Source of the DNA: Micavibrio sp.
GTDB taxonomy: Bacteria; Patescibacteriota; Minisyncoccia; Moranbacterales; GCA-2747515
Assembly: GCA_020718085.1 (NCBI GenBank)
Contig: DYDB01000002.1
Span: forward strand, 113,161 to 177,160
Direction: 5' to 3'
DNA length: 64,000 nucleotides
In this document: positions 3,162-53,308 of the stretch, in pieces
Numbering within the stretch: the stretch's first letter is position 1
Layout: every line of letters starts with the position of its first letter
Made by a program: the position numbers and the translations under genes
The notes under the pieces: model-generated
The model's database searches: none
Told to the model about the DNA's origin: nothing
The model's input: the letters and a program-made list of their open reading frames with translations, nothing else

Positions 3162-3205
3162 AACGTGTCTATTGTAACAAAAGATCGTGTAAATATCCAG
3201 AATTT

Positions 3206-3233
3206 GACAAATGTTCGTATTACTGTAAAATAA
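3206..3233 (+). promoter_or_regulatory. sigma70-like promoter candidate (TTGACA-16-TAAAAT)
   Basis: TTGACA at 3206, 16-nt spacer, TAAAAT. Lies in the 550-bp intergenic region upstream of a tyrA leader region. Confidence 0.3.
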
Positions 3234-3378
3234 TCATTGTTATCAATTAATGTACGATTTGTGCATATAAACGGAGCAAAATTTTGGTATTATTTTGCTT
3301 TCTACTTTACAAGTAGAGACCGTTTTGTTTTTGCGCAAATTTATACATAGATAATAGAAAAAATTTGCAGTAAAAATA

Positions 3379-3410
3379 GGCCGGTCTCACGTGTGAGACG
3401 GGTTTTTTGT
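3379..3410 (+). terminator. intrinsic terminator-like hairpin (GGTCTCAC/GTGAGACC) plus T6
   Basis: ccggtctcacgtgtgagacgg followed by gttttttg. Confidence 0.5.
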
Positions 3411-3462: not shown

Positions 3463-3621
3463 ATGAAGGTTACAAATCAGGAAGAAAAACAACAACAGAT
3501 CACTGAATTAAAAGTTGGAAAATCACCAGGGGATCAGGATATTGTTGATAAGAAACAGACAGATCCAAGATATGGTTCTCGTGATCTAAAAAGTGAGATT
3601 GGGCGCGACGCCGGTTGGTGA
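3463..3621 (+). CDS. small hypothetical protein (52 aa) in the tyrA upstream region
   Basis: ATG preceded by AGGAGAGG at -7 nt. Translates to MKVTNQEEKQQQITELKVGKSPGDQDIVDKKQTDPRYGSRDLKSEIGRDAGW. It falls below the ORF-track cutoff. Confidence 0.3.
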   Translation: MKVTNQEEKQQQITELKVGKSPGDQDIVDKKQTDPRYGSRDLKSEIGRDAGW

Positions 3622-3650
3622 GAAAAAGATTTCTGCTGCAATATAAGCCT

Positions 3651-3683
3651 GGGACAGAGCATGTAACACATGTTCTGTCCCGA
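3651..3683 (+). promoter_or_regulatory. 14-bp stem-loop (loop AAC) between the small ORF and tyrA
   Basis: gggacagagcatgt aac acatgttctgtccc, near-perfect stem with no downstream T-run. Confidence 0.35.
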
Positions 3684-3712
3684 TAATAAATCCATCTATT
3701 TAAAAAAAGATT

Positions 3713-4558
3713 ATGCAAAAAATTTATACGCCACATACAGTGGGAATAATTGGTGGCAAAGGCCGCATGGGGCAAAAATTTCAACAGGCATTAACAGGCT
3801 GTGGTATGCATGTGATCGTAGCGGACGTTGATACACCGAAAACAAATCGTGATGTGGCAGCGGAAAGTGATGTAGTGATCGTTTCTGTGCCAATTCGTTA
3901 CACAGAACATGTTCTTCGCGATATTGCACCGGTCATGCAAGCGGGATCACTTCTTACTGATCTTACATCTGTTAAAATATTGCCCATGACTGTCATGCAG
4001 GAACGTGTTGGTGATGATGTGGGATTTGTGGGAGGGCATCCGCTCTTTGCGCCATCAACAGATTGGAAAAAACAACATTTTATTCTTTGTGAAGGTGCGG
4101 AAAGTATGTTCACGGCATGGTACAGGAATTTTTTGCTTTCTCTGGGTTTGGAGATCATTGATATGTCCGCGGTTGAACATGATCGACACATGGCGATCAT
4201 TCAATGTTTAACTCACTTTTCCAATGTTGCACTTGGGTCCGCACTCGAGAAGTTACACTACGATCTTCACAGGGGGGAAAAAATTTCTACATCGGTGTAC
4301 AAGATGCGATTGTATGGTGTCGGTCGTATTCTTGCGCAAGATCCAATGCTCTATGCAGATATTCAAAAATTCAATCCATATGCGAAAGAGGTGAGTGAGG
4401 TGTATCTTGCATCTGTACAAGAATTGTGTGCGTCCATTACGGATGGAGACGGTTTTGTGGAAATTTTTAAGAGGGATCAGAAATATTTTGGTGACTTTAC
4501 ACAAAAATCACTTCAGATCACAGACCAATTAATTAAAACCATGAACAAATATGAATAA
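3713..4558 (+). CDS. tyrA: prephenate dehydrogenase
   Basis: Rossmann motif IIGGKGRMG and the PDH family dimerisation domain. First gene of an operon with pheA and an aminotransferase. Confidence 0.8.
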   Translation: MQKIYTPHTVGIIGGKGRMGQKFQQALTGCGMHVIVADVDTPKTNRDVAAESDVVIVSVPIRYTEHVLRDIAPVMQAGSLLTDLTSVKILPMTVMQERVGDDVGFVGGHPLFAPSTDWKKQHFILCEGAESMFTAWYRNFLLSLGLEIIDMSAVEHDRHMAIIQCLTHFSNVALGSALEKLHYDLHRGEKISTSVYKMRLYGVGRILAQDPMLYADIQKFNPYAKEVSEVYLASVQELCASITDGDGFVEIFKRDQKYFGDFTQKSLQITDQLIKTMNKYE

Positions 4559-5354
4559 AATCTATGCTCTCGGACCACAATTTAGTTATTCTTATAATTT
4601 GGCAGTACGCGCTTATGATGCAAAGTGTGTGTATTGTGTGCAAAATATCCATGATGTATTCACACATGTAATGCAGGAAAATGATGCAAGGGGCATTGTG
4701 CCAATCGAAAATATGCTCACAGGGTCTGTGCGTGAAAGTCTTCTCGCTCTTAAAAAATATAGCATTTGTATTGAACGATCTTTTGATCTGCACATTGAAC
4801 ATGTTCTTGCATCGCATAACCGTACATATACAAAGATCGTTTCACACGGGCAACCCCTCGCACAATGTAGTGAGTTCATACGTACAAAAAAATGTGAAAT
4901 TGTGGAGGCGTCATCTACATCTGCAGCAATGCAAATGGCAGCATCAGATCCATCTGTTGCAGCTATTGGTAATGTAGAAGCAACACAATATTATAATGTG
5001 CCAATCGTGGAGCAACGTATCAGTGATCGAACTCATAATATCACACGATTTATTGAAATTCGTAACAATACGAGAACTTGTACGAATTCTGGTACAAAAA
5101 CGTCAATGATCATTACACCACGAGAGGATCGCGCAGGGTTATTGTTCGAGATCTTGTCTGTTTTTGAAATTAAGGAGATCAATTTAACAAAGATCGAATC
5201 CATGCCGACGGGAAATAAAATGAATGATTATATCTTTTATATTGACATTGATGGTGCACTGAAAGAAACGCGTGTGCAAGATGCGATCAATTTCTTACGC
5301 ACATTTGTTACTGTGGATGTATTTGGAAGTTATAATATAGAAGAAATAAATTAA
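4551..5354 (+). CDS. pheA: prephenate dehydratase with C-terminal ACT domain
   Basis: PDT domain with the TKIESMP (ESRP-like) motif and an ACT regulatory domain. Overlaps tyrA by 8 nt. Confidence 0.8.
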   Translation: MNKIYALGPQFSYSYNLAVRAYDAKCVYCVQNIHDVFTHVMQENDARGIVPIENMLTGSVRESLLALKKYSICIERSFDLHIEHVLASHNRTYTKIVSHGQPLAQCSEFIRTKKCEIVEASSTSAAMQMAASDPSVAAIGNVEATQYYNVPIVEQRISDRTHNITRFIEIRNNTRTCTNSGTKTSMIITPREDRAGLLFEILSVFEIKEINLTKIESMPTGNKMNDYIFYIDIDGALKETRVQDAINFLRTFVTVDVFGSYNIEEIN

Positions 5355-5363
5355 TATAACATC

Positions 5364-6470
5364 ATGAAAATATCAAAGCGTGTACAGGCTATGGATGCAA
5401 GTGGGATCAGAAAGGTTTTTGCACTTGCCAAAGAATTAAAAGACCCGATCGATCTCAGTATTGGACAGCCAGATTTTATGGTGCCAAAAAATATTAAAGA
5501 TTCGGCATGTCATGCAATTCAGACTGACTATAATCGTTATTCATTGACGCAGGGCATTGATGAATTGCGTGATGAGGTCGTAAGTAAATTAAAAAACAAA
5601 AATAAGATCAGTGCGTGCAGGAAAAATATTCTAATCACCTCGGCTGTTTCTGGTGGACTTAGTGTTATTTTGCCATGTATCCTTGATCACGGTGATGAAG
5701 TGGTCATTTTTGATCCGCACTTTGTAGGATATAAGCAGCTCGTTCTTCTCTATGGTGGTGTACCGATAAATGTAAATAAAAGATTTGATTTTTCAATCGA
5801 CTTCAATGCATTGGAGCAGGTTATAACACAAAAAACACGGGCAATTGTCTTTAATACGCCAGAAAATCCAACAGGTCATGTGAGTGATCACGAGGAAATT
5901 CGTATGTTGGCAGAATTTGCGCGTAAATATGATCTCTATGTGATCTCTGATGAAATATATGAAGATTTTGTCTATGACGGTGAGCACATTTCCATCGGTT
6001 CTCTCTATGAAAAAACAATAACAGTGGGAGGATTTTCCAAATCACATGCCATGACAGGGTGGCGCGTGGGTTATTTGTGCGCGCCAGATGATTTAGTGAA
6101 TGAAATGGTCAAAGTACAACAATACACATTTGTTTGTGCTCCAGCACCTTTTCAATATGCGGCCATAGATGCTCTGCATACAGATATGTCGGATTTTGTG
6201 TTGCAATATAAGAAAAAGCGCACTACCATCTATGATGGACTGAAAGATTATTATGAGATGATGCAGTCAGGTGGAGCGTTTTATTTTTTTATAAAATATC
6301 CTTATGATCCGGAAAAATTCATTGCACGATGTATGGAAAATAATTTACTTGTCATTCCGGGAAATGTTTTTAGTGCACATAATACACACTTTCGTATTTC
6401 TTTTGCAACAACTGATGAAAAATTACATAAAGCGATTACAATATTGCAGCATATCGCAAAAGAGGTGTAA
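5364..6470 (+). CDS. class I/II PLP-dependent aminotransferase (aromatic/histidinol-phosphate type)
   Basis: SKSHAMTGWRVGY PLP-lysine region. Third gene of the tyrA-pheA operon. Confidence 0.75.
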   Translation: MKISKRVQAMDASGIRKVFALAKELKDPIDLSIGQPDFMVPKNIKDSACHAIQTDYNRYSLTQGIDELRDEVVSKLKNKNKISACRKNILITSAVSGGLSVILPCILDHGDEVVIFDPHFVGYKQLVLLYGGVPINVNKRFDFSIDFNALEQVITQKTRAIVFNTPENPTGHVSDHEEIRMLAEFARKYDLYVISDEIYEDFVYDGEHISIGSLYEKTITVGGFSKSHAMTGWRVGYLCAPDDLVNEMVKVQQYTFVCAPAPFQYAAIDALHTDMSDFVLQYKKKRTTIYDGLKDYYEMMQSGGAFYFFIKYPYDPEKFIARCMENNLLVIPGNVFSAHNTHFRISFATTDEKLHKAITILQHIAKEV

Positions 6471-6521
6471 GAGTGTACATTTTTAAGATGTCCCAAGTGT
6501 GAATAGTTGCTGTGTGAGATT

Positions 6522-6550
6522 TTGACAAAAAAAAGAAATGGCATATAATG
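6522..6550 (+). promoter_or_regulatory. near-consensus sigma70 promoter TTGACA-17-TATAAT
   Basis: TTGACA at 6522-6527, 17-nt spacer, TATAAT at 6545-6550. It lies just downstream of the aminotransferase stop. Confidence 0.55.
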
Positions 6551-6558
6551 GAAATGTT

Positions 6559-6657
6559 ATGACAATATATTCAACGCAAAAATTTTATTCAGTGGTGGTC
6601 TCAATTATTATTATGCTGACAGCGAGAAGTCAGTTCGTTTTTGCGGGTAGAGAATAA
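6559..6657 (+). CDS. candidate 32-codon hydrophobic small ORF / leader peptide inside a ~150-nt promoter-to-terminator unit (possibly an sRNA instead)
   Basis: ATG only ~9 nt after the -10 element. Translates to MTIYSTQKFYSVVVSIIIMLTARSQFVFAGRE. Its 3' part is complementary to the 5' arm of the downstream terminator. Confidence 0.25.
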   Translation: MTIYSTQKFYSVVVSIIIMLTARSQFVFAGRE

Positions 6658-6681
6658 AAATCTTCACATGCCAATAAAAAC

Positions 6682-6712
6682 AAGCTGACTTCTCAGGGAG
6701 TCAGCTTTTTTG
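6682..6712 (+). terminator. intrinsic terminator (AAGCTGACT/AGTCAGCTT stem, T6)
   Basis: aagctgacttctcagggagtcagcttttttg. Confidence 0.65.
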
Positions 6713-6760
6713 TTCTTTAAGAGAAAAAGATATTATCACAAAAATTTCAGTGAGGTATGT

Positions 6761-7069
6761 ATGAGCAAATGTATTGACTTTTATCATCAAAGGCTTCCTT
6801 TGGAACATGTTATTGTTGTCATGCAATTAGAAAAAGGAGGATCTTGGGTTTCACATGGTGATGCGATTCCTGTAGATGAGCGTTGGGATAATGGTATGGT
6901 TGTGGATGCGCATGTTATTGGTGCATGTATGTTCAATAATTCTGGTGTATGCGTTCTATATCGTACGTCACAAAATTCTCTCATTTCTCTTTTCGTGGAC
7001 AAGGGGGAAAAAGGGAGTGTTTTTCAACAATTAATGGATCGCAAAAAGGAGGTATTGGAAACTGTATGA
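6761..7069 (+). CDS. hypothetical protein (103 aa from ATG 6761)
   Basis: ORF with a GAGGT RBS. The 6710 start in the ORF track would overlap the terminator, so 6761 is preferred. Confidence 0.45.
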   Translation: MSKCIDFYHQRLPLEHVIVVMQLEKGGSWVSHGDAIPVDERWDNGMVVDAHVIGACMFNNSGVCVLYRTSQNSLISLFVDKGEKGSVFQQLMDRKKEVLETV

Positions 7070-7128: not shown

Positions 7129-7308
7129 ATGGCTGGAGCTGGTTCTACTGGGGAAAAAAATGTGATGCGTGTTGTTGAAGAGATCGAGGGAGGTGGATCA
7201 GTGACTCTTTTTGAAAAACCGATCGATCCTGTAGGTCCGACGCGAGAGGAGATAGAAAGTCTTGCGGAGTGGGAAAAAAACCTCTTCAAACCGCCTGAAA
7301 AAGAGTAA
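7129..7308 (+). CDS. small acidic hypothetical protein (59 aa)
   Basis: AAGGAG RBS 7 nt upstream of the ATG at 7129. Sequence MAGAGSTGEKNVMRVVEEIEGGGSVTLFEKPIDPVGPTREEIESLAEWEKNLFKPPEKE. Confidence 0.4.
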   Translation: MAGAGSTGEKNVMRVVEEIEGGGSVTLFEKPIDPVGPTREEIESLAEWEKNLFKPPEKE

Positions 7309-9297: not shown

Positions 9298-9804
9298 TTA
9301 AAGTGACAGCTTTTTTTCAATAGCAATTACTTCGTCTATTGGTTTTTCATGAAATTTGATATTGACGTTGTTTGGAAATTTGAGCACGAGTTCGGCGTTT
9401 ATTTTTCTGTCTTTATATATAAAGGAATGTGATGGATATCTTTGCATCATATCATATAGGGGGATATCCACGACAAATTCCGCATGCTCCAAACCTTTGC
9501 GATACACATTGTCTTTAGCTGGTGCAAGAATTTCGAAAAAACGAATTTGCATACCTTTATATTGTAGAGGTTCGTGAAGTTTCATGATTGCAACACGTCG
9601 ATCTCGGATGATCTTTTCTGAGAGCGCTTCTCCATATGTAAAAAGATCATTTTTCAATTTTTCATAATCTTCTGCGGATGTGGTTCTATATGCAATATGG
9701 TCCACATAAAAAGCGGACACGTCGATTTTTGTTTTGCGTAGATTTTCATGGACGATATCCAGAAATTTCTTATAATCGCCAATCATGTCTGAGATCGTAT
9801 TCAT
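9298..9804 (-). CDS. hypothetical protein, possibly VOC/YecM-like fold (weak)
   Basis: ~168 aa from the Met at 9804. HIAYRT and HAEFVV motifs vaguely resemble the glyoxalase/YecM fold. The ORF-track extension to 9858 reads through a tRNA fragment and is unlikely to be real. Confidence 0.3.
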   Translation of the reverse strand: MNTISDMIGDYKKFLDIVHENLRKTKIDVSAFYVDHIAYRTTSAEDYEKLKNDLFTYGEALSEKIIRDRRVAIMKLHEPLQYKGMQIRFFEILAPAKDNVYRKGLEHAEFVVDIPLYDMMQRYPSHSFIYKDRKINAELVLKFPNNVNIKFHEKPIDEVIAIEKKLSL

Positions 9805-10147
9805 TTTTTTTGTAGATAGTGAAGTTGTGTTGTCCGGGCAGGGATCGAACCTGCGCATGTTCCGATTGTAATCGAGATGCTTTGCTTCGGCTATTAGAAA
9901 TCATGTTTTGAATATAGGCATGATTTTTTAAATTTTTGAGATATTTTTCTCTTCTTAGAGCCTCTGATCGACTATTAAAAATTTCCTGATAAATCAATCT
10001 TAGTGGTCGTCTGTGAGTAGTTGCTTTTACGTAACCGGCATTGTGTCTCTCAAGTCTGTTTTGTAGATTGTTTGTTTGACCAATATAAAATCTGGAGTCT
10101 TTTAGGCTTTCTAAAATATATACAAAATATTTTATAGATGTTTCCAT
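9770..10147 (-). CDS. GIY-YIG (URI-domain) nuclease family protein, YhbQ/COG2827-like
   Basis: YFVYILES...FYIGQTNNLQNRLERHN...RREKYLK is a textbook GIY-YIG motif set. The ATG lies 6 nt downstream of the tRNA-Gln 3' end. The C-terminal ~35 codons read through the tRNA-Cys 3' fragment. Confidence 0.75.
   Translation of the reverse strand: METSIKYFVYILESLKDSRFYIGQTNNLQNRLERHNAGYVKATTHRRPLRLIYQEIFNSRSEALRREKYLKNLKNHAYIQNMISNSRSKASRLQSEHAQVRSLPGQHNFTIYKKNEYDLRHDWRL
9830..9874 (-). pseudogene. tRNA-Cys-like 3' portion: variable loop, T-arm and acceptor 3' strand (CATGCGCAGGTTCGATCCCTGCCCGGACA)
   Basis: Canonical T-arm GCAGG-TTCGATC-CCTGC. The acceptor 3' strand CCGGACA is an exact complement of the 5' strand TGTCCGG found at 10307-10313. 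No matching 5' half is adjacent. Confidence 0.55.
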
Positions 10148-10153
10148 ACAAAG

Positions 10154-10225
10154 TTGGACCGGCAGGATTCGAACCTGCGCATGACGGGACCAAAACCCGT
10201 TGCCTTACCGCTTGGCTACGGTCCA
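10154..10225 (-). tRNA. tRNA-Gln(UUG)
   Basis: TGGACCG-TA-GCC-AAGCGGTAA-GGC-A-ACGGG-TTTTGGT-CCCGT-CATGC-GCAGG-TTCGAAT-CCTGC-CGGTCCA-A. U1:A72 and the D-arm match the E. coli tRNA-Gln pattern. CCA is not encoded. Confidence 0.8.
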
Positions 10226-12064: not shown

Positions 12065-12697
12065 TCATTTTTTGAATACAAAGATCTTGTAACCAATAAA
12101 ATTCCATACAAGTGATGCAAGTGTTGCAGTTGCTGCTGCAATATTGGCAAGTTGCGCATCGCTTAGAGTGTTTGTGGCGTGAAAAGTGAAAACAATCAAT
12201 GATGCAAGTCCCACATTGATCAAAAATCCACTTGTACTTACTGCAATGAATTTAAATACTTCTTGTGAAGTGGATTTTTCTGTTGCGTTGAATGTCCAAT
12301 ATTTATTCCAAAAGTACGCACCGGTTGCAGCTACGACAAAGGAAATGCTTTTGAACAAAGAAAATCCGAGACCACCGGCAATGCCTGTGATAAGAATGAG
12401 AAGATTTAAGACGCCCCAATCAAGAAATGTGTTAAATGCGCCAACTGCACCAAATTTTGCCAATTGAAAGATCACGGGAATTTTTTTGCCCACAAACCAC
12501 GCACATGCCAAAGAAACATTGGCAAGAATCGTAAAAAAAATGACGAGGGCAATAACGAAAGGAATGGATATTTTGATGAAAGGCAGACCAAGATTTGTCA
12601 TGATTGGCAGGGAAAACAGAGCAAAACAAATACCAATGAGAGAAACTAAATAAAAATCTCTGCGCGTAATTAGTGGCGCCCCCATAACGTTTTTCAT
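12065..12697 (-). CDS. GtrA-like polytopic membrane protein
   Basis: FGAVGAFNTFLDWGVLNLL and FWNKYWTF match GtrA family signatures. There are extra TM helices. Confidence 0.45.
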   Translation of the reverse strand: MKNVMGAPLITRRDFYLVSLIGICFALFSLPIMTNLGLPFIKISIPFVIALVIFFTILANVSLACAWFVGKKIPVIFQLAKFGAVGAFNTFLDWGVLNLLILITGIAGGLGFSLFKSISFVVAATGAYFWNKYWTFNATEKSTSQEVFKFIAVSTSGFLINVGLASLIVFTFHATNTLSDAQLANIAAATATLASLVWNFIGYKIFVFKK

Positions 12698-12710
12698 AAG
12701 TATTTTTGGA

Positions 12711-13454
12711 TTATTGAGATTGATTCATTTCTGCACGAATTTCTTTTTCAATTTCATCGATATCCGGAACCCATTCATCAATAATATCACTGCCAGAATC
12801 AAGTGTAGAATCGGTACTGCCTGTGAGAATTTCAGTTGCAGTTTTTGGTTTTGCATCAACCGGTTGTGTGAACTGAGGCATGGTATTTATTGCCGGTGCA
12901 GCACTTGGATTGCCTGTGTGTTGTAAGACAGCCTCGATGGATGCCCATTGCGCATTCGGTTCCTGCGACGTAACAATAGCCACTTCGTCTCCAGGTTCTG
13001 CGTTGAAATATGTAATTGATGCAAGAAGAATCTTGTATGGTCTACCGTCAGCAGCTACAAAATAATTGCCACTGGAATCTTGTCCGACAATGCCGATCTT
13101 ATTTTGTCGTGGAACAGGACCAATTTGTTTATAGATAAACGTACCATCTTGCACAATGGTCAACTTCAAAAAGTCGCCTTCCACAAGCTTGGATTTTGAG
13201 GCATAATTCGCCGGGACGGGGTACTGTTTACCGTTTGTGCCGATCATGATTTGTCCATCAAACGTGCCCTGTACGATATTTCCGTCACCCTCTTCCGCTT
13301 TTTTGTGACGTCCTACCTTCTTTTTCCCTTCAATTTGAAGAAGCATCGCCTTGGCGCTCTGGATCGTTTGTTCTGCGCTATTGATCATCTCGCGCAGAGA
13401 TTGGATTTTTTGCGTCTTTTCCTCTTCGGAAAGAGCATGTGTAATATCAGTCAT
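12711..13454 (-). CDS. hypothetical protein with N-terminal coiled coil and an internal ~55-aa tandem duplication
   Basis: Two similar segments, (GTFDGQIMIGTNGKQYPVPANYASKSKLVEGD...) and (GIVGQDSSGNYFVAADGRPYKILLASITYFNAEPGDEV...). Confidence 0.45.
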   Translation of the reverse strand: MTDITHALSEEEKTQKIQSLREMINSAEQTIQSAKAMLLQIEGKKKVGRHKKAEEGDGNIVQGTFDGQIMIGTNGKQYPVPANYASKSKLVEGDFLKLTIVQDGTFIYKQIGPVPRQNKIGIVGQDSSGNYFVAADGRPYKILLASITYFNAEPGDEVAIVTSQEPNAQWASIEAVLQHTGNPSAAPAINTMPQFTQPVDAKPKTATEILTGSTDSTLDSGSDIIDEWVPDIDEIEKEIRAEMNQSQ

Positions 13455-52880: not shown

Positions 52881-53092
52881 AGATGAGCAAAACTAATGCA
52901 AAAAGCAACGCTCTTGACAATTTTTGAATGTTTGGTAGTATGGATACTACATGTTCGAGAAAATATTATACCAATAAGCACGAAGAGGTTTTCCAGTTGT
53001 ATATTGTCAGGATCTAGGAATGAGATTGTGCGGAAATAATACCCTCTTGTTTTTTGTTGTTATAAATATTTTTAGAATATATCACGTAAAAT

Positions 53093-53308
53093 ATGGCAAA
53101 AAAGGATACGATCAAATTGGAAGGAATAATCACTGAAACGTTACCGAGTACAACATTTCGTGTTACATTGGATAACGGACATGAAGTATTGGCGCACATA
53201 TCAGGTCGCATGCGTGTGCATTACATTCGTTTGCTTCCAGGGGATCGTGTTTTGGTGGAGATGAGTCCATATGATCTTACAAAAGGTCGTATCACTCAAA
53301 GACTGTAA
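53093..53308 (+). CDS. infA: translation initiation factor IF-1
   Basis: S1-like fold, near-identical to bacterial IF-1. Confidence 0.9.

Follow-up and report, generated by a model that had tools for sequence, protein, structure and literature searches.

What is the use of a consensus promoter whose transcript would meet an intrinsic terminator after some 150 nucleotides (nt), short of the two small genes that follow? This question is raised by positions 6522-6712 of a 64,000-nt stretch of DNA assigned to Micavibrio sp. (Patescibacteriota, Moranbacterales in the GTDB lineage; contig DYDB01000002.1 of GenBank assembly GCA_020718085.1, positions 113,161 to 177,160 of the forward strand), the whole of which is referred to here as the window. 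An earlier note, made from the sequence alone, had proposed for this unit an attenuator of the branched-chain type, or else a small RNA or a small toxin-like membrane peptide. Our analysis supports the first of these proposals. We consider that the unit is probably a ribosome-mediated (leader-peptide) transcription attenuator, a reading that draws on sequence comparison and modelled folding, and in particular on conservation accompanied by compensatory change, on the occurrence of paralogues with other codon runs, and on a predicted change of fold immediately after codon I18 of the leader. Positions of individual features are given in Table 1; loci from other genomes and metagenomes are designated by number (L001 and so on) where they need to be distinguished.

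A leader reading frame between promoter and terminator

The promoter is of the sigma-70 type and both of its hexamers are perfect, as had been stated in the earlier note, although the spacer measures 16 nt rather than the 17 nt given there. A perfect TTGACA-N16-18-TATAAT occurs only once in the window, against an expectation of 0.11 from shuffled sequence, and TTGACA-16/17-TAnnnT is kept 5' of all class-1 and class-3 copies of the attenuator described below. Judged by the position of its ATG, the 32-codon open reading frame (ORF) that follows is leaderless or nearly so, much as had been proposed. Its counterparts begin 6-9 nt past the -10 element in every copy of class 1 and class 3, and 5 nt past it in a diverged copy at 3204-3408 of the window, hereafter copy A; since the start codon thus lies 5-9 nt past the -10 element wherever a promoter is assignable, the leader mRNAs as a group would be leaderless or nearly so. 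In all copies the leader ORF extends over the full 5' arm of the antiterminator helix described below, and its stop codon always falls in the apical loop of that helix. Insertions and deletions that distinguish the leader ORFs of different clades preserve the reading frame, which also stays open across a 66-nt insertion that sets L138 apart from L173 (49 codons as against 27); the chance that the frame would stay open, estimated from shuffles, is 0.03-0.25 per copy.

The clean terminator reported in the earlier note was recovered by a terminator scan as 11 pairs followed by a T-run. Folded alone it has a predicted energy of -16.5 kcal/mol, and it sits 50 nt 5' of the gene at 6761. Read on the minus strand, the same hairpin (6682-6707) is again scored as terminator-like, with the tail GTTTTTATTG, because the antiterminator 3' arm is A-rich; no convergent gene is present to use it.

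Competing helices and the position of the ribosome

The 10-nt complementarity first noticed between GAGAAGTCAG (6624-6633) and CTGACTTCTC (6685-6694) is indeed present, as is the recurrence of GCTGAC at 6615 and 6684, and the complementary segments prove to be part of a larger structure, a 24-pair interrupted helix (6624-6649/6669-6694) that takes up the 5' arm of the terminator and that we refer to as the antiterminator. Of the predicted folds of the putative transcript, this long interrupted hairpin has the lowest free energy (-44.4 kcal/mol, z = -4.7, with none of 200 shuffles as good), so that folding under both pairings, which the earlier note had suggested as a check, does not always favour the terminator. 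In every clade the predicted energy of the antiterminator (-20 to -33 kcal/mol) is lower than that of the terminator by itself (-11 to -18 kcal/mol). An upstream hairpin, formed by segment 1 and part of segment 2 (-7.3 kcal/mol in an upstream-only fold), has an equivalent in every copy. The 1:2 pause hairpin of trp serves as the model for its role: by analogy, the hairpin and its U-tract may act both as a synchronising pause site and as an anti-antiterminator, a dual role that would also explain the invariant U-tract and its A-rich partner.

The influence of a translating ribosome was modelled by forbidding pairing within a 28-nt mask that spans -15 to +12, counted from the first base of the codon in the A-site. 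As the folds are computed at equilibrium and the footprint is an assumption, the results speak to feasibility rather than kinetics. In the 6522 copy the antiterminator was predicted when no ribosome was present or when the A-site lay within codons 13-18, and the terminator (11 pairs) when it lay within codons 21-30, the flip coming right after I18. Copy A folded as the terminator without a ribosome, as the antiterminator with the A-site at W17-F20, and again as the terminator with F24, codons 29-35 or the stop codon in the A-site, codon 26 giving a mixed structure of 9 terminator and 3 antiterminator pairs. With four further copies included, the switch from antiterminator to terminator coincided with the 3' end of the codon run, or lay close to it, in six of six copies folded with the mask.

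Under the general model of leader-peptide attenuation (PMC1183508), the unit would operate as follows. Transcription would begin about 7 nt past the -10 element, a start site predicted from the sequence, placing the AUG at or within 3 nt of the mRNA 5' end, and a ribosome would load without a Shine-Dalgarno sequence and translate the 32-codon leader, crossing segment 1 and the entire antiterminator 5' arm toward the stop codon in the apical loop. A ribosome slowed on the Val/Ile run (codons 12-18) would cover segment 1 and leave segment 2 free to capture segment 3 as it emerges, whereupon no terminator would form and polymerase would read through into the genes for the 102- and 59-amino acid (aa) proteins. 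A ribosome that had moved past about codon 20 would instead sit on the antiterminator 5' arm, and segment 3 would then pair with segment 4 (6697-6707), bringing transcription to a stop at the T-run. The leader is thus presumed to be translated, with ribosome and polymerase coupled in Moranbacteria; composition and geometry together suggest that charging of Ile and Val (perhaps also Leu) tRNAs would be the signal for the 6522 copy.

Conservation and covariation among copies

The aminotransferase gene upstream of the unit has its nearest relatives in genomes of Candidatus Moraniibacteriota, within the Candidate Phyla Radiation (CPR)/Patescibacteria, and synteny 3' of that gene is not kept in these nearest genomes. 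By exact-protein look-up the window was matched to assembly GCA_017973795.1 (JAEMOL010000003.1), and identical copies were found in a groundwater metagenome as well. The first distant homologue emerged from a blastn comparison of the region with fetched loci, as a collinear match elsewhere in L001, where a like promoter, an ATG 8 nt past the -10 element, a 31-codon ORF and a terminator precede the gene for a 98-aa protein that is distantly homologous (23% identity) to the 102-aa protein of the window. Searches with the ~100-aa protein, and one scan of metagenomes with a two-block pattern, yielded 12 distinct orthologous copies; among the 120 loci listed by the pattern scan at least 12 were real, representing about 6 distinct sequences, and most of the others were chance matches. 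A 16-mer scan of viral contigs returned 51 matches, none of them homologous. Every copy that stands 5' of the ~100-aa gene family is on a Moranbacteria-type contig, and the element travels with this gene, not with the upstream aminotransferase. Within a clade the element, from promoter to terminator, is 94-96% identical, whereas flanking coding sequences are 71-88% identical (the spacer to the next gene, 70-94%), which argues that constraint at the nucleotide level is stronger on the element than on neighbouring genes. Between the two main clades the corresponding values are 69% for the element and 51% for the downstream gene.

In a MAFFT alignment of the 12 copies (A3), pairing is kept in 93.4% of cells for the 24 antiterminator pairs and in 93.9% for the 11 terminator pairs, and column 103 (window position 6690, in segment 3) covaries with its antiterminator partner and with its terminator partner alike. 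A covariance model, R1, built from this alignment matched a set of diverged paralogues, at 3283-3407 of the window (48.7 bits, E = 1e-8) and in L001, L109, L197/L201, L138 and L173. When 18 copies were aligned by fitting to the covariance model (A5), the antiterminator was 92.8% paired, with compensatory (both-side) change at 9 pairs in 33 cells, and its covariation score of 0.294, compared with at most 0.105 in slid controls, was reached by 0 of 500 shuffles, statistics that derive from a model-fitted alignment of related sequences. Segments 2, 3 and 4 vary in sequence among the paralogues with their mutual complementarity kept. The conservation that the earlier note had asked about is therefore found in the ORF, in both pairings and in the promoter across Moranbacteria lineages, compensatory changes included.

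Conservation of this kind could also be read as that of a long hairpin serving as a protein- or ligand-binding riboregulator, or of a terminated RNA of ~150 nt acting in trans as a small RNA (sRNA), with the ORF untranslated or incidental. In line with this, GUUUUUGC and AUAAAAAUAAGC are strongly kept in 18 of 18 copies regardless of reading frame, and the fold is very stable; attenuator-derived sRNAs are moreover known, rnTrpL being one example (PMC6614838). Nevertheless we regard such a reading as quite improbable, as it leaves unexplained the fixed distance between start codon and -10 element, the stop codon in the apical loop, the in-frame 66-nt insertion, and the presence just 5' of the helix of three kinds of codon run, two of them matching the downstream pathway. 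The unit also matches no Rfam family: a scan of the whole window at gathering thresholds, a check that the earlier note had proposed, returned nothing except two tRNAs, and a permissive scan of 6400-6850 found no leader family at E <= 10. A trans role of the terminated RNA could coexist with attenuation.

Codon runs and the operons that follow them

The paralogues share one scaffold and differ in the codon run that precedes the helix. Run enrichment was tested in each case against the amino acid usage of the window itself. Copy A carries the run ...KFWYYFAFYFT..., of which F16-F24 (FWYYFAFYF, 3282-3308) has 8 of 9 residues Phe, Trp or Tyr against a background of 8.6% (p < 2e-5); downstream of copy A come a 52-aa ORF, tyrA (prephenate dehydrogenase), pheA (prephenate dehydratase) and the aminotransferase gene (3463-6470; Pfam assignments). 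Its counterparts in L001, L109 and L197 have YYFSFSFWF and similar runs, in L001 ahead of a 125-aa ORF, pheA and an aminotransferase. In L173 and L138 the run is NDNNDNDD, and the genes downstream encode an Mqo-like flavoprotein and a class-I aminotransferase. The flavoprotein of L173, a metagenome contig, is malate:quinone-oxidoreductase-like (PF06039 at 4e-24, under the NCBIfam cut-offs), and the class-I aminotransferase scores best as aminotransferase A, with models of aspartate aminotransferase (AspAT) close behind; a route from malate through oxaloacetate to aspartate is plausible. Aromatic runs are enriched at p = 3e-3 to < 2e-5, and Asn/Asp runs at p <= 1e-4. Run and operon accordingly match in two paralogue types, aromatic before tyrA-pheA and Asn/Asp before the Mqo-like and AspAT-like genes. 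The 6522 copy, with the run VVVSIII, precedes the 102-aa and 59-aa proteins; 7 of 9 residues in its best stretch are Ile, Leu or Val against a background of 24% (p = 0.009), and the corresponding figures for orthologues are 9 of 9 in L210 (p = 6e-5), 6 of 9 in L197 (p = 0.05) and 5 of 9 in L001 (p = 0.19), the Ile/Leu/Val class having been picked after the sequence was seen.

A switch driven by the leader ribosome need not report a particular amino acid. The same structure might register general translation speed or a ribosome-targeting compound, in the manner of erm, cat or yxjB-type leaders, and the small proteins would then belong to a translation-stress response. That the downstream genes are unrelated to Ile/Val metabolism, and that the hydrophobic run is only loosely kept across class-1 clades, would suit this alternative, and tylosin-dependent stalling (PMC6851288) offers a precedent. 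We nonetheless judge it unlikely, for the same-scaffold paralogues carry amino acid runs matching their operons, and this speaks for a family that senses tRNA charging. A further consideration is the C-terminal R-x-Q-F-V-F-A-G shared by class-1 and class-2 leaders, which could in principle be an arrest motif of a general translation sensor. L173 and L138, however, read the conserved nucleotides UUUUUGCGGGUAA in another frame, ending ...VYFCG*. Because L173 keeps the nucleotides in a different frame, part of the conservation of the QFVFAG peptide must reflect constraint on RNA; the helix, of which the block forms one strand, explains the FVFA block, and QFVFAG was rejected as an arrest peptide. 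The frame used by L173 and L138 is open as a second frame in some class-1 copies (L001 1165-1257, L109 and L210), where it runs from a TTG 4 nt past the -10 element to ...CFCG* at GGGTAA. The window and L197 have this frame closed, and it is therefore probably not functional there.

The remaining alternative holds that the ORF encodes a small hydrophobic membrane peptide or type-I toxin and that the hairpins serve only as terminator and mRNA-stability elements. The peptide of the window does have a hydrophobic core, FYSVVVSIIIMLTA, and the minus strand carries at 6633-6604 a promoter-like site, a weak one (9 of 12 matches), but the core is only ~14 residues long and no antisense RNA gene is evident at the locus. 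Lys interrupts the hydrophobic stretch in the L001 and L197 orthologues, and Asn/Asp or aromatic runs replace it in the same-scaffold paralogues; the unit, moreover, lies directly 5' of the downstream genes and co-varies in position with them. With hydrophobicity kept in neither orthologues nor paralogues, the small-toxin alternative of the earlier note was rejected, and we find it very hard to credit.

Several observations weigh against the attenuator reading of the 6522 copy. Family scans reveal no recognisable link between the 102-aa and 59-aa genes and branched-chain amino acids, and the L001 and L197 clades show a weak enrichment of Ile/Leu/Val; these residues are in any case common in an AT-rich genome, and the post hoc choice of this class and the model-fitted origin of the A5 statistics, both mentioned above, count on the same side. 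An aromatic-type leader sometimes precedes only a small gene with no assigned function (L201). The block GUUUUUGCGGGUA is kept as nucleotides even where it is read in another frame (L173), and the second frame is open in several copies. Finally, the 6522 copy reverts to the antiterminator at equilibrium when the mask is placed at the stop codon.

Some features of organization among the leaders may be recorded here. In L173 two attenuators stand in tandem within 800 bp (4880-5706), an aromatic one (YSFFWF) followed by the Asn/Asp one, with a 119-aa gene between them. In the window and in L001 the aromatic-type and Ile/Val-type copies lie 1.3-3.3 kb apart, the order of the two units being reversed between them. 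Three direct repeats of approximately AAATTTAAC(R)GGG... occur just 5' of the aromatic-type leader ORF in L001 (2400-2500) and L109 (1240-1345); no clear TTGACA promoter was found for this leader in either locus, and the repeats could represent a regulator-binding site or an unusual promoter.

Genes downstream and other elements

Table 1. Features of the 6522-6712 unit, its downstream genes and copy A, in window coordinates.
Feature	Position	Strand	Description	Basis or remark
Promoter, sigma-70 type	6522-6549	+	TTGACA 6522-6527, 16-nt spacer, TATAAT 6544-6549	12/12 matches
Leader ORF	6559-6657	+	MTIYSTQKFYSVVVSIIIMLTARSQFVFAGRE; 32 codons, ATG 6559, TAA 6655-6657	ATG 9 nt past -10; no Shine-Dalgarno sequence
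Candidate regulatory codon run	6592-6612	+	V12 V13 V14 S15 I16 I17 I18 (GTG GTG GTC TCA ATT ATT ATT)	Ile/Leu/Val enrichment
Segment 1	6615-6620	+	GCUGAC; pairs with GUCAGU of segment 2 in a 6-bp hairpin, followed by UCGUUUUUGC	6615-6634 flagged as hairpin plus U-tract by terminator scan
Antiterminator 5' arm	6624-6649	+	Segment 2 GAGAAGUCAGUU, GUUUUUG, GGUA; wholly inside leader ORF	Minimum-free-energy fold, covariation
Antiterminator 3' arm	6669-6694	+	UGCC, UAAAAAC, segment 3 AAGCUGACUUCUC (shared with terminator 5' arm)	Fold, covariation
Intrinsic terminator	6682-6711	+	11-bp stem 6682-6692/6697-6707, 5 G-C, 4-nt loop, T-run 6706-6711	Terminator scan
First regulated gene (predicted)	6761-7069	+	102-aa protein; GAGG ribosome-binding site before it	Family confined to Moranbacteria among matches
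Second regulated gene (predicted)	7129-7308	+	59-aa protein; last before convergent minus-strand genes	Called gene in source assembly and relatives
Copy A promoter	3204-3231	+	TTGACA, 16-nt spacer, TAAAAT	11/12 matches
Copy A leader ORF	3237-3350	+	MLSINVRFVHINGAKFWYYFAFYFTSRDRFVFAQIYT; TTG start 5 nt past -10	Start TTG assumed
Copy A antiterminator/terminator core	3283-3408	+	Terminator stem 3384-3399, T-run 3403-3408	Covariance-model match, terminator scan

The genes that the 6522 copy would regulate offer few clues to function. Eleven proteins of the ~100-aa family were found; every match with a source name is from Candidatus Moranbacteria, no annotation is attached to any of them, and every homologue of the 102-aa protein that was retrieved lies in an operon 3' of a class-1 attenuator. 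Profile searches gave no Pfam, NCBIfam or PDB match for the 102-aa protein, and an AlphaFold model built from 7 sequences was poor (predicted local distance difference test score, pLDDT, 45). The 59-aa protein has no Pfam match, and the small downstream proteins overall are without a match in Pfam, NCBIfam or PDB, in agreement with the description of these genes in the earlier note as small proteins of no assigned function.

Other elements were seen nearby and in relatives. Within the operon of copy A, a strong 13-bp hairpin (GGGACAGAGCATG/CATGTTCTGTCCC, 5-nt loop TAACA) occupies 3651-3681, between the 52-aa ORF and tyrA, with no T-run after it; RNA processing, stability or pausing are candidate roles. 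Further along the window, 52914-53092 contains TTGACA-17-TAGTAT with an ATG 8 nt on, 5' of infA (IF-1, 53093-53308), a candidate that was rejected as a member of the attenuator family. In other Moraniibacteriota the aminotransferase gene is followed by a different unit, made up of a short promoter, a small hairpin and a T-run: in L021 (5095-5180) TTGACA-17-TATTAT and an RNA of ~45 nt precede nusA, and in L001 (5105-5215) the unit precedes rplI. Such units may represent further small leaders or sRNAs. In L233 (Moranbacteria GCA_053613725.1) an insertion of ~270 bp (12619-12892) separates pheA from the aminotransferase gene; it is missing from the otherwise near-identical L232 and, having no R1 match, is not a copy of the attenuator. 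A gene for a 125-aa protein with a GIY-YIG nuclease domain on the minus strand of the window adjoins a tRNA-Gln gene (10153-10225, also minus), the two together occupying 9770-10225, and may be a mobile or homing-type element.

Relation to known attenuators

The branched-chain attenuators of enterobacteria, represented in textbooks by ilvGMEDA with ilvL, ilvBN with ivbL, and the leu leader, are the obvious standard of comparison. The 6522 unit resembles them in having a short ORF with a Val/Ile(/Leu) run just 5' of segment 1, and mutually exclusive 2:3 antiterminator and 3:4 terminator helices, the latter with a U-tract, of which folding predicts that stalling on the run favours 2:3. It differs from them in showing no sequence or Rfam relationship, in starting at or near the 5' end without a Shine-Dalgarno sequence, in an ORF that reaches across the full antiterminator 5' arm to end in the apical loop, and in having two small proteins downstream in place of ilv or leu enzymes. 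It differs further in the balance of stabilities: at -27 to -33 kcal/mol the antiterminator greatly exceeds the terminator (-16.5 kcal/mol) in stability, so that without a ribosome the 6522 copy is predicted to fold into the ON state.

Copy A invites a separate comparison, with pheL (Rfam Phe_leader RF01859; PMC3082878). The resemblance lies in the Phe/Tyr/Trp run that copy A carries in a leader 5' of genes for prephenate dehydratase and dehydrogenase, and in its predicted fold, which terminates with the ribosome past the run and likewise without a ribosome. Copy A is unlike pheL in its TTG start, which is probably leaderless, and in a scaffold held in common with the non-aromatic 6522 copy; its score against RF01859, 16.5 bits where the gathering threshold is 55, indicates that it is not a member of that family.

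Beyond the Proteobacteria, the closest parallels are with attenuators predicted in Actinobacteria by comparative genomics, which likewise combine leader ORFs, regulatory codons and alternative hairpins (PMC1262725); the present family differs in its phylum (Patescibacteria/CPR) and in the reuse of one scaffold with at least three codon classes. The mycobacterial 'Cys ribulon' is reported to comprise leaderless polycysteine short ORFs on which a stalled ribosome unmasks a downstream ribosome-binding site (10.1101/834739). Leaderless short ORFs with a codon run, a stall (predicted for the present family) that turns the operon on, and occurrence at several loci are points in common. The amino acid classes and the phylum differ from those described there, and the competing structure in the 6522 unit is a terminator rather than sequestration of a ribosome-binding site; as this is an intrinsic terminator with a U-tract, control would be transcriptional. 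The family also departs from classical cases in that most of the genes it would regulate encode uncharacterised small proteins. A search of the full-text literature found no paper that joins Patescibacteria or CPR with leader-peptide attenuation, and the family is very probably a previously undescribed one, a lineage-specific variant of a well-known mechanism.

Implications for the biology of Moranbacteria

Taken further, and with a confidence that falls a little short of an even chance, these findings suggest that the ultra-small Moranbacteria carry a lineage-specific, modular attenuator cassette, in which a single scaffold with swapped codon runs constitutes an amino acid-starvation 'ribulon' over the few amino acid enzymes retained in their reduced genomes and over small proteins peculiar to Moranbacteria (the ~100-aa, 59-74-aa and 122-125-aa families). 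On this tentative proposal, the codon classes written into the scaffold would include aromatic, Ile/Val/Leu and Asn/Asp, and probably more, and the small proteins would be induced by starvation and serve, for example, in scavenging from a host. CPR organisms are believed to depend on hosts for most of their building blocks. Moranbacteria-only small proteins encoded behind amino acid-sensing leaders, near tyrA, pheA and aminotransferase genes, are in this respect candidates for a starvation response.

Gene regulation has hardly been explored in CPR/Patescibacteria. Attenuation that depends on ribosomes is generally considered rare in bacteria such as Bacillus, where transcription runs ahead of translation; a working attenuator in Moranbacteria, if the present reading is true, would mean that ribosomes closely trail RNA polymerase, and that leaderless mRNAs are efficiently translated, in a CPR lineage. 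The R1 model can be used to annotate attenuators and leader ORFs that gene callers have missed, and the reuse of one scaffold with swapped runs would provide a natural example of how the specificity of attenuators evolves.

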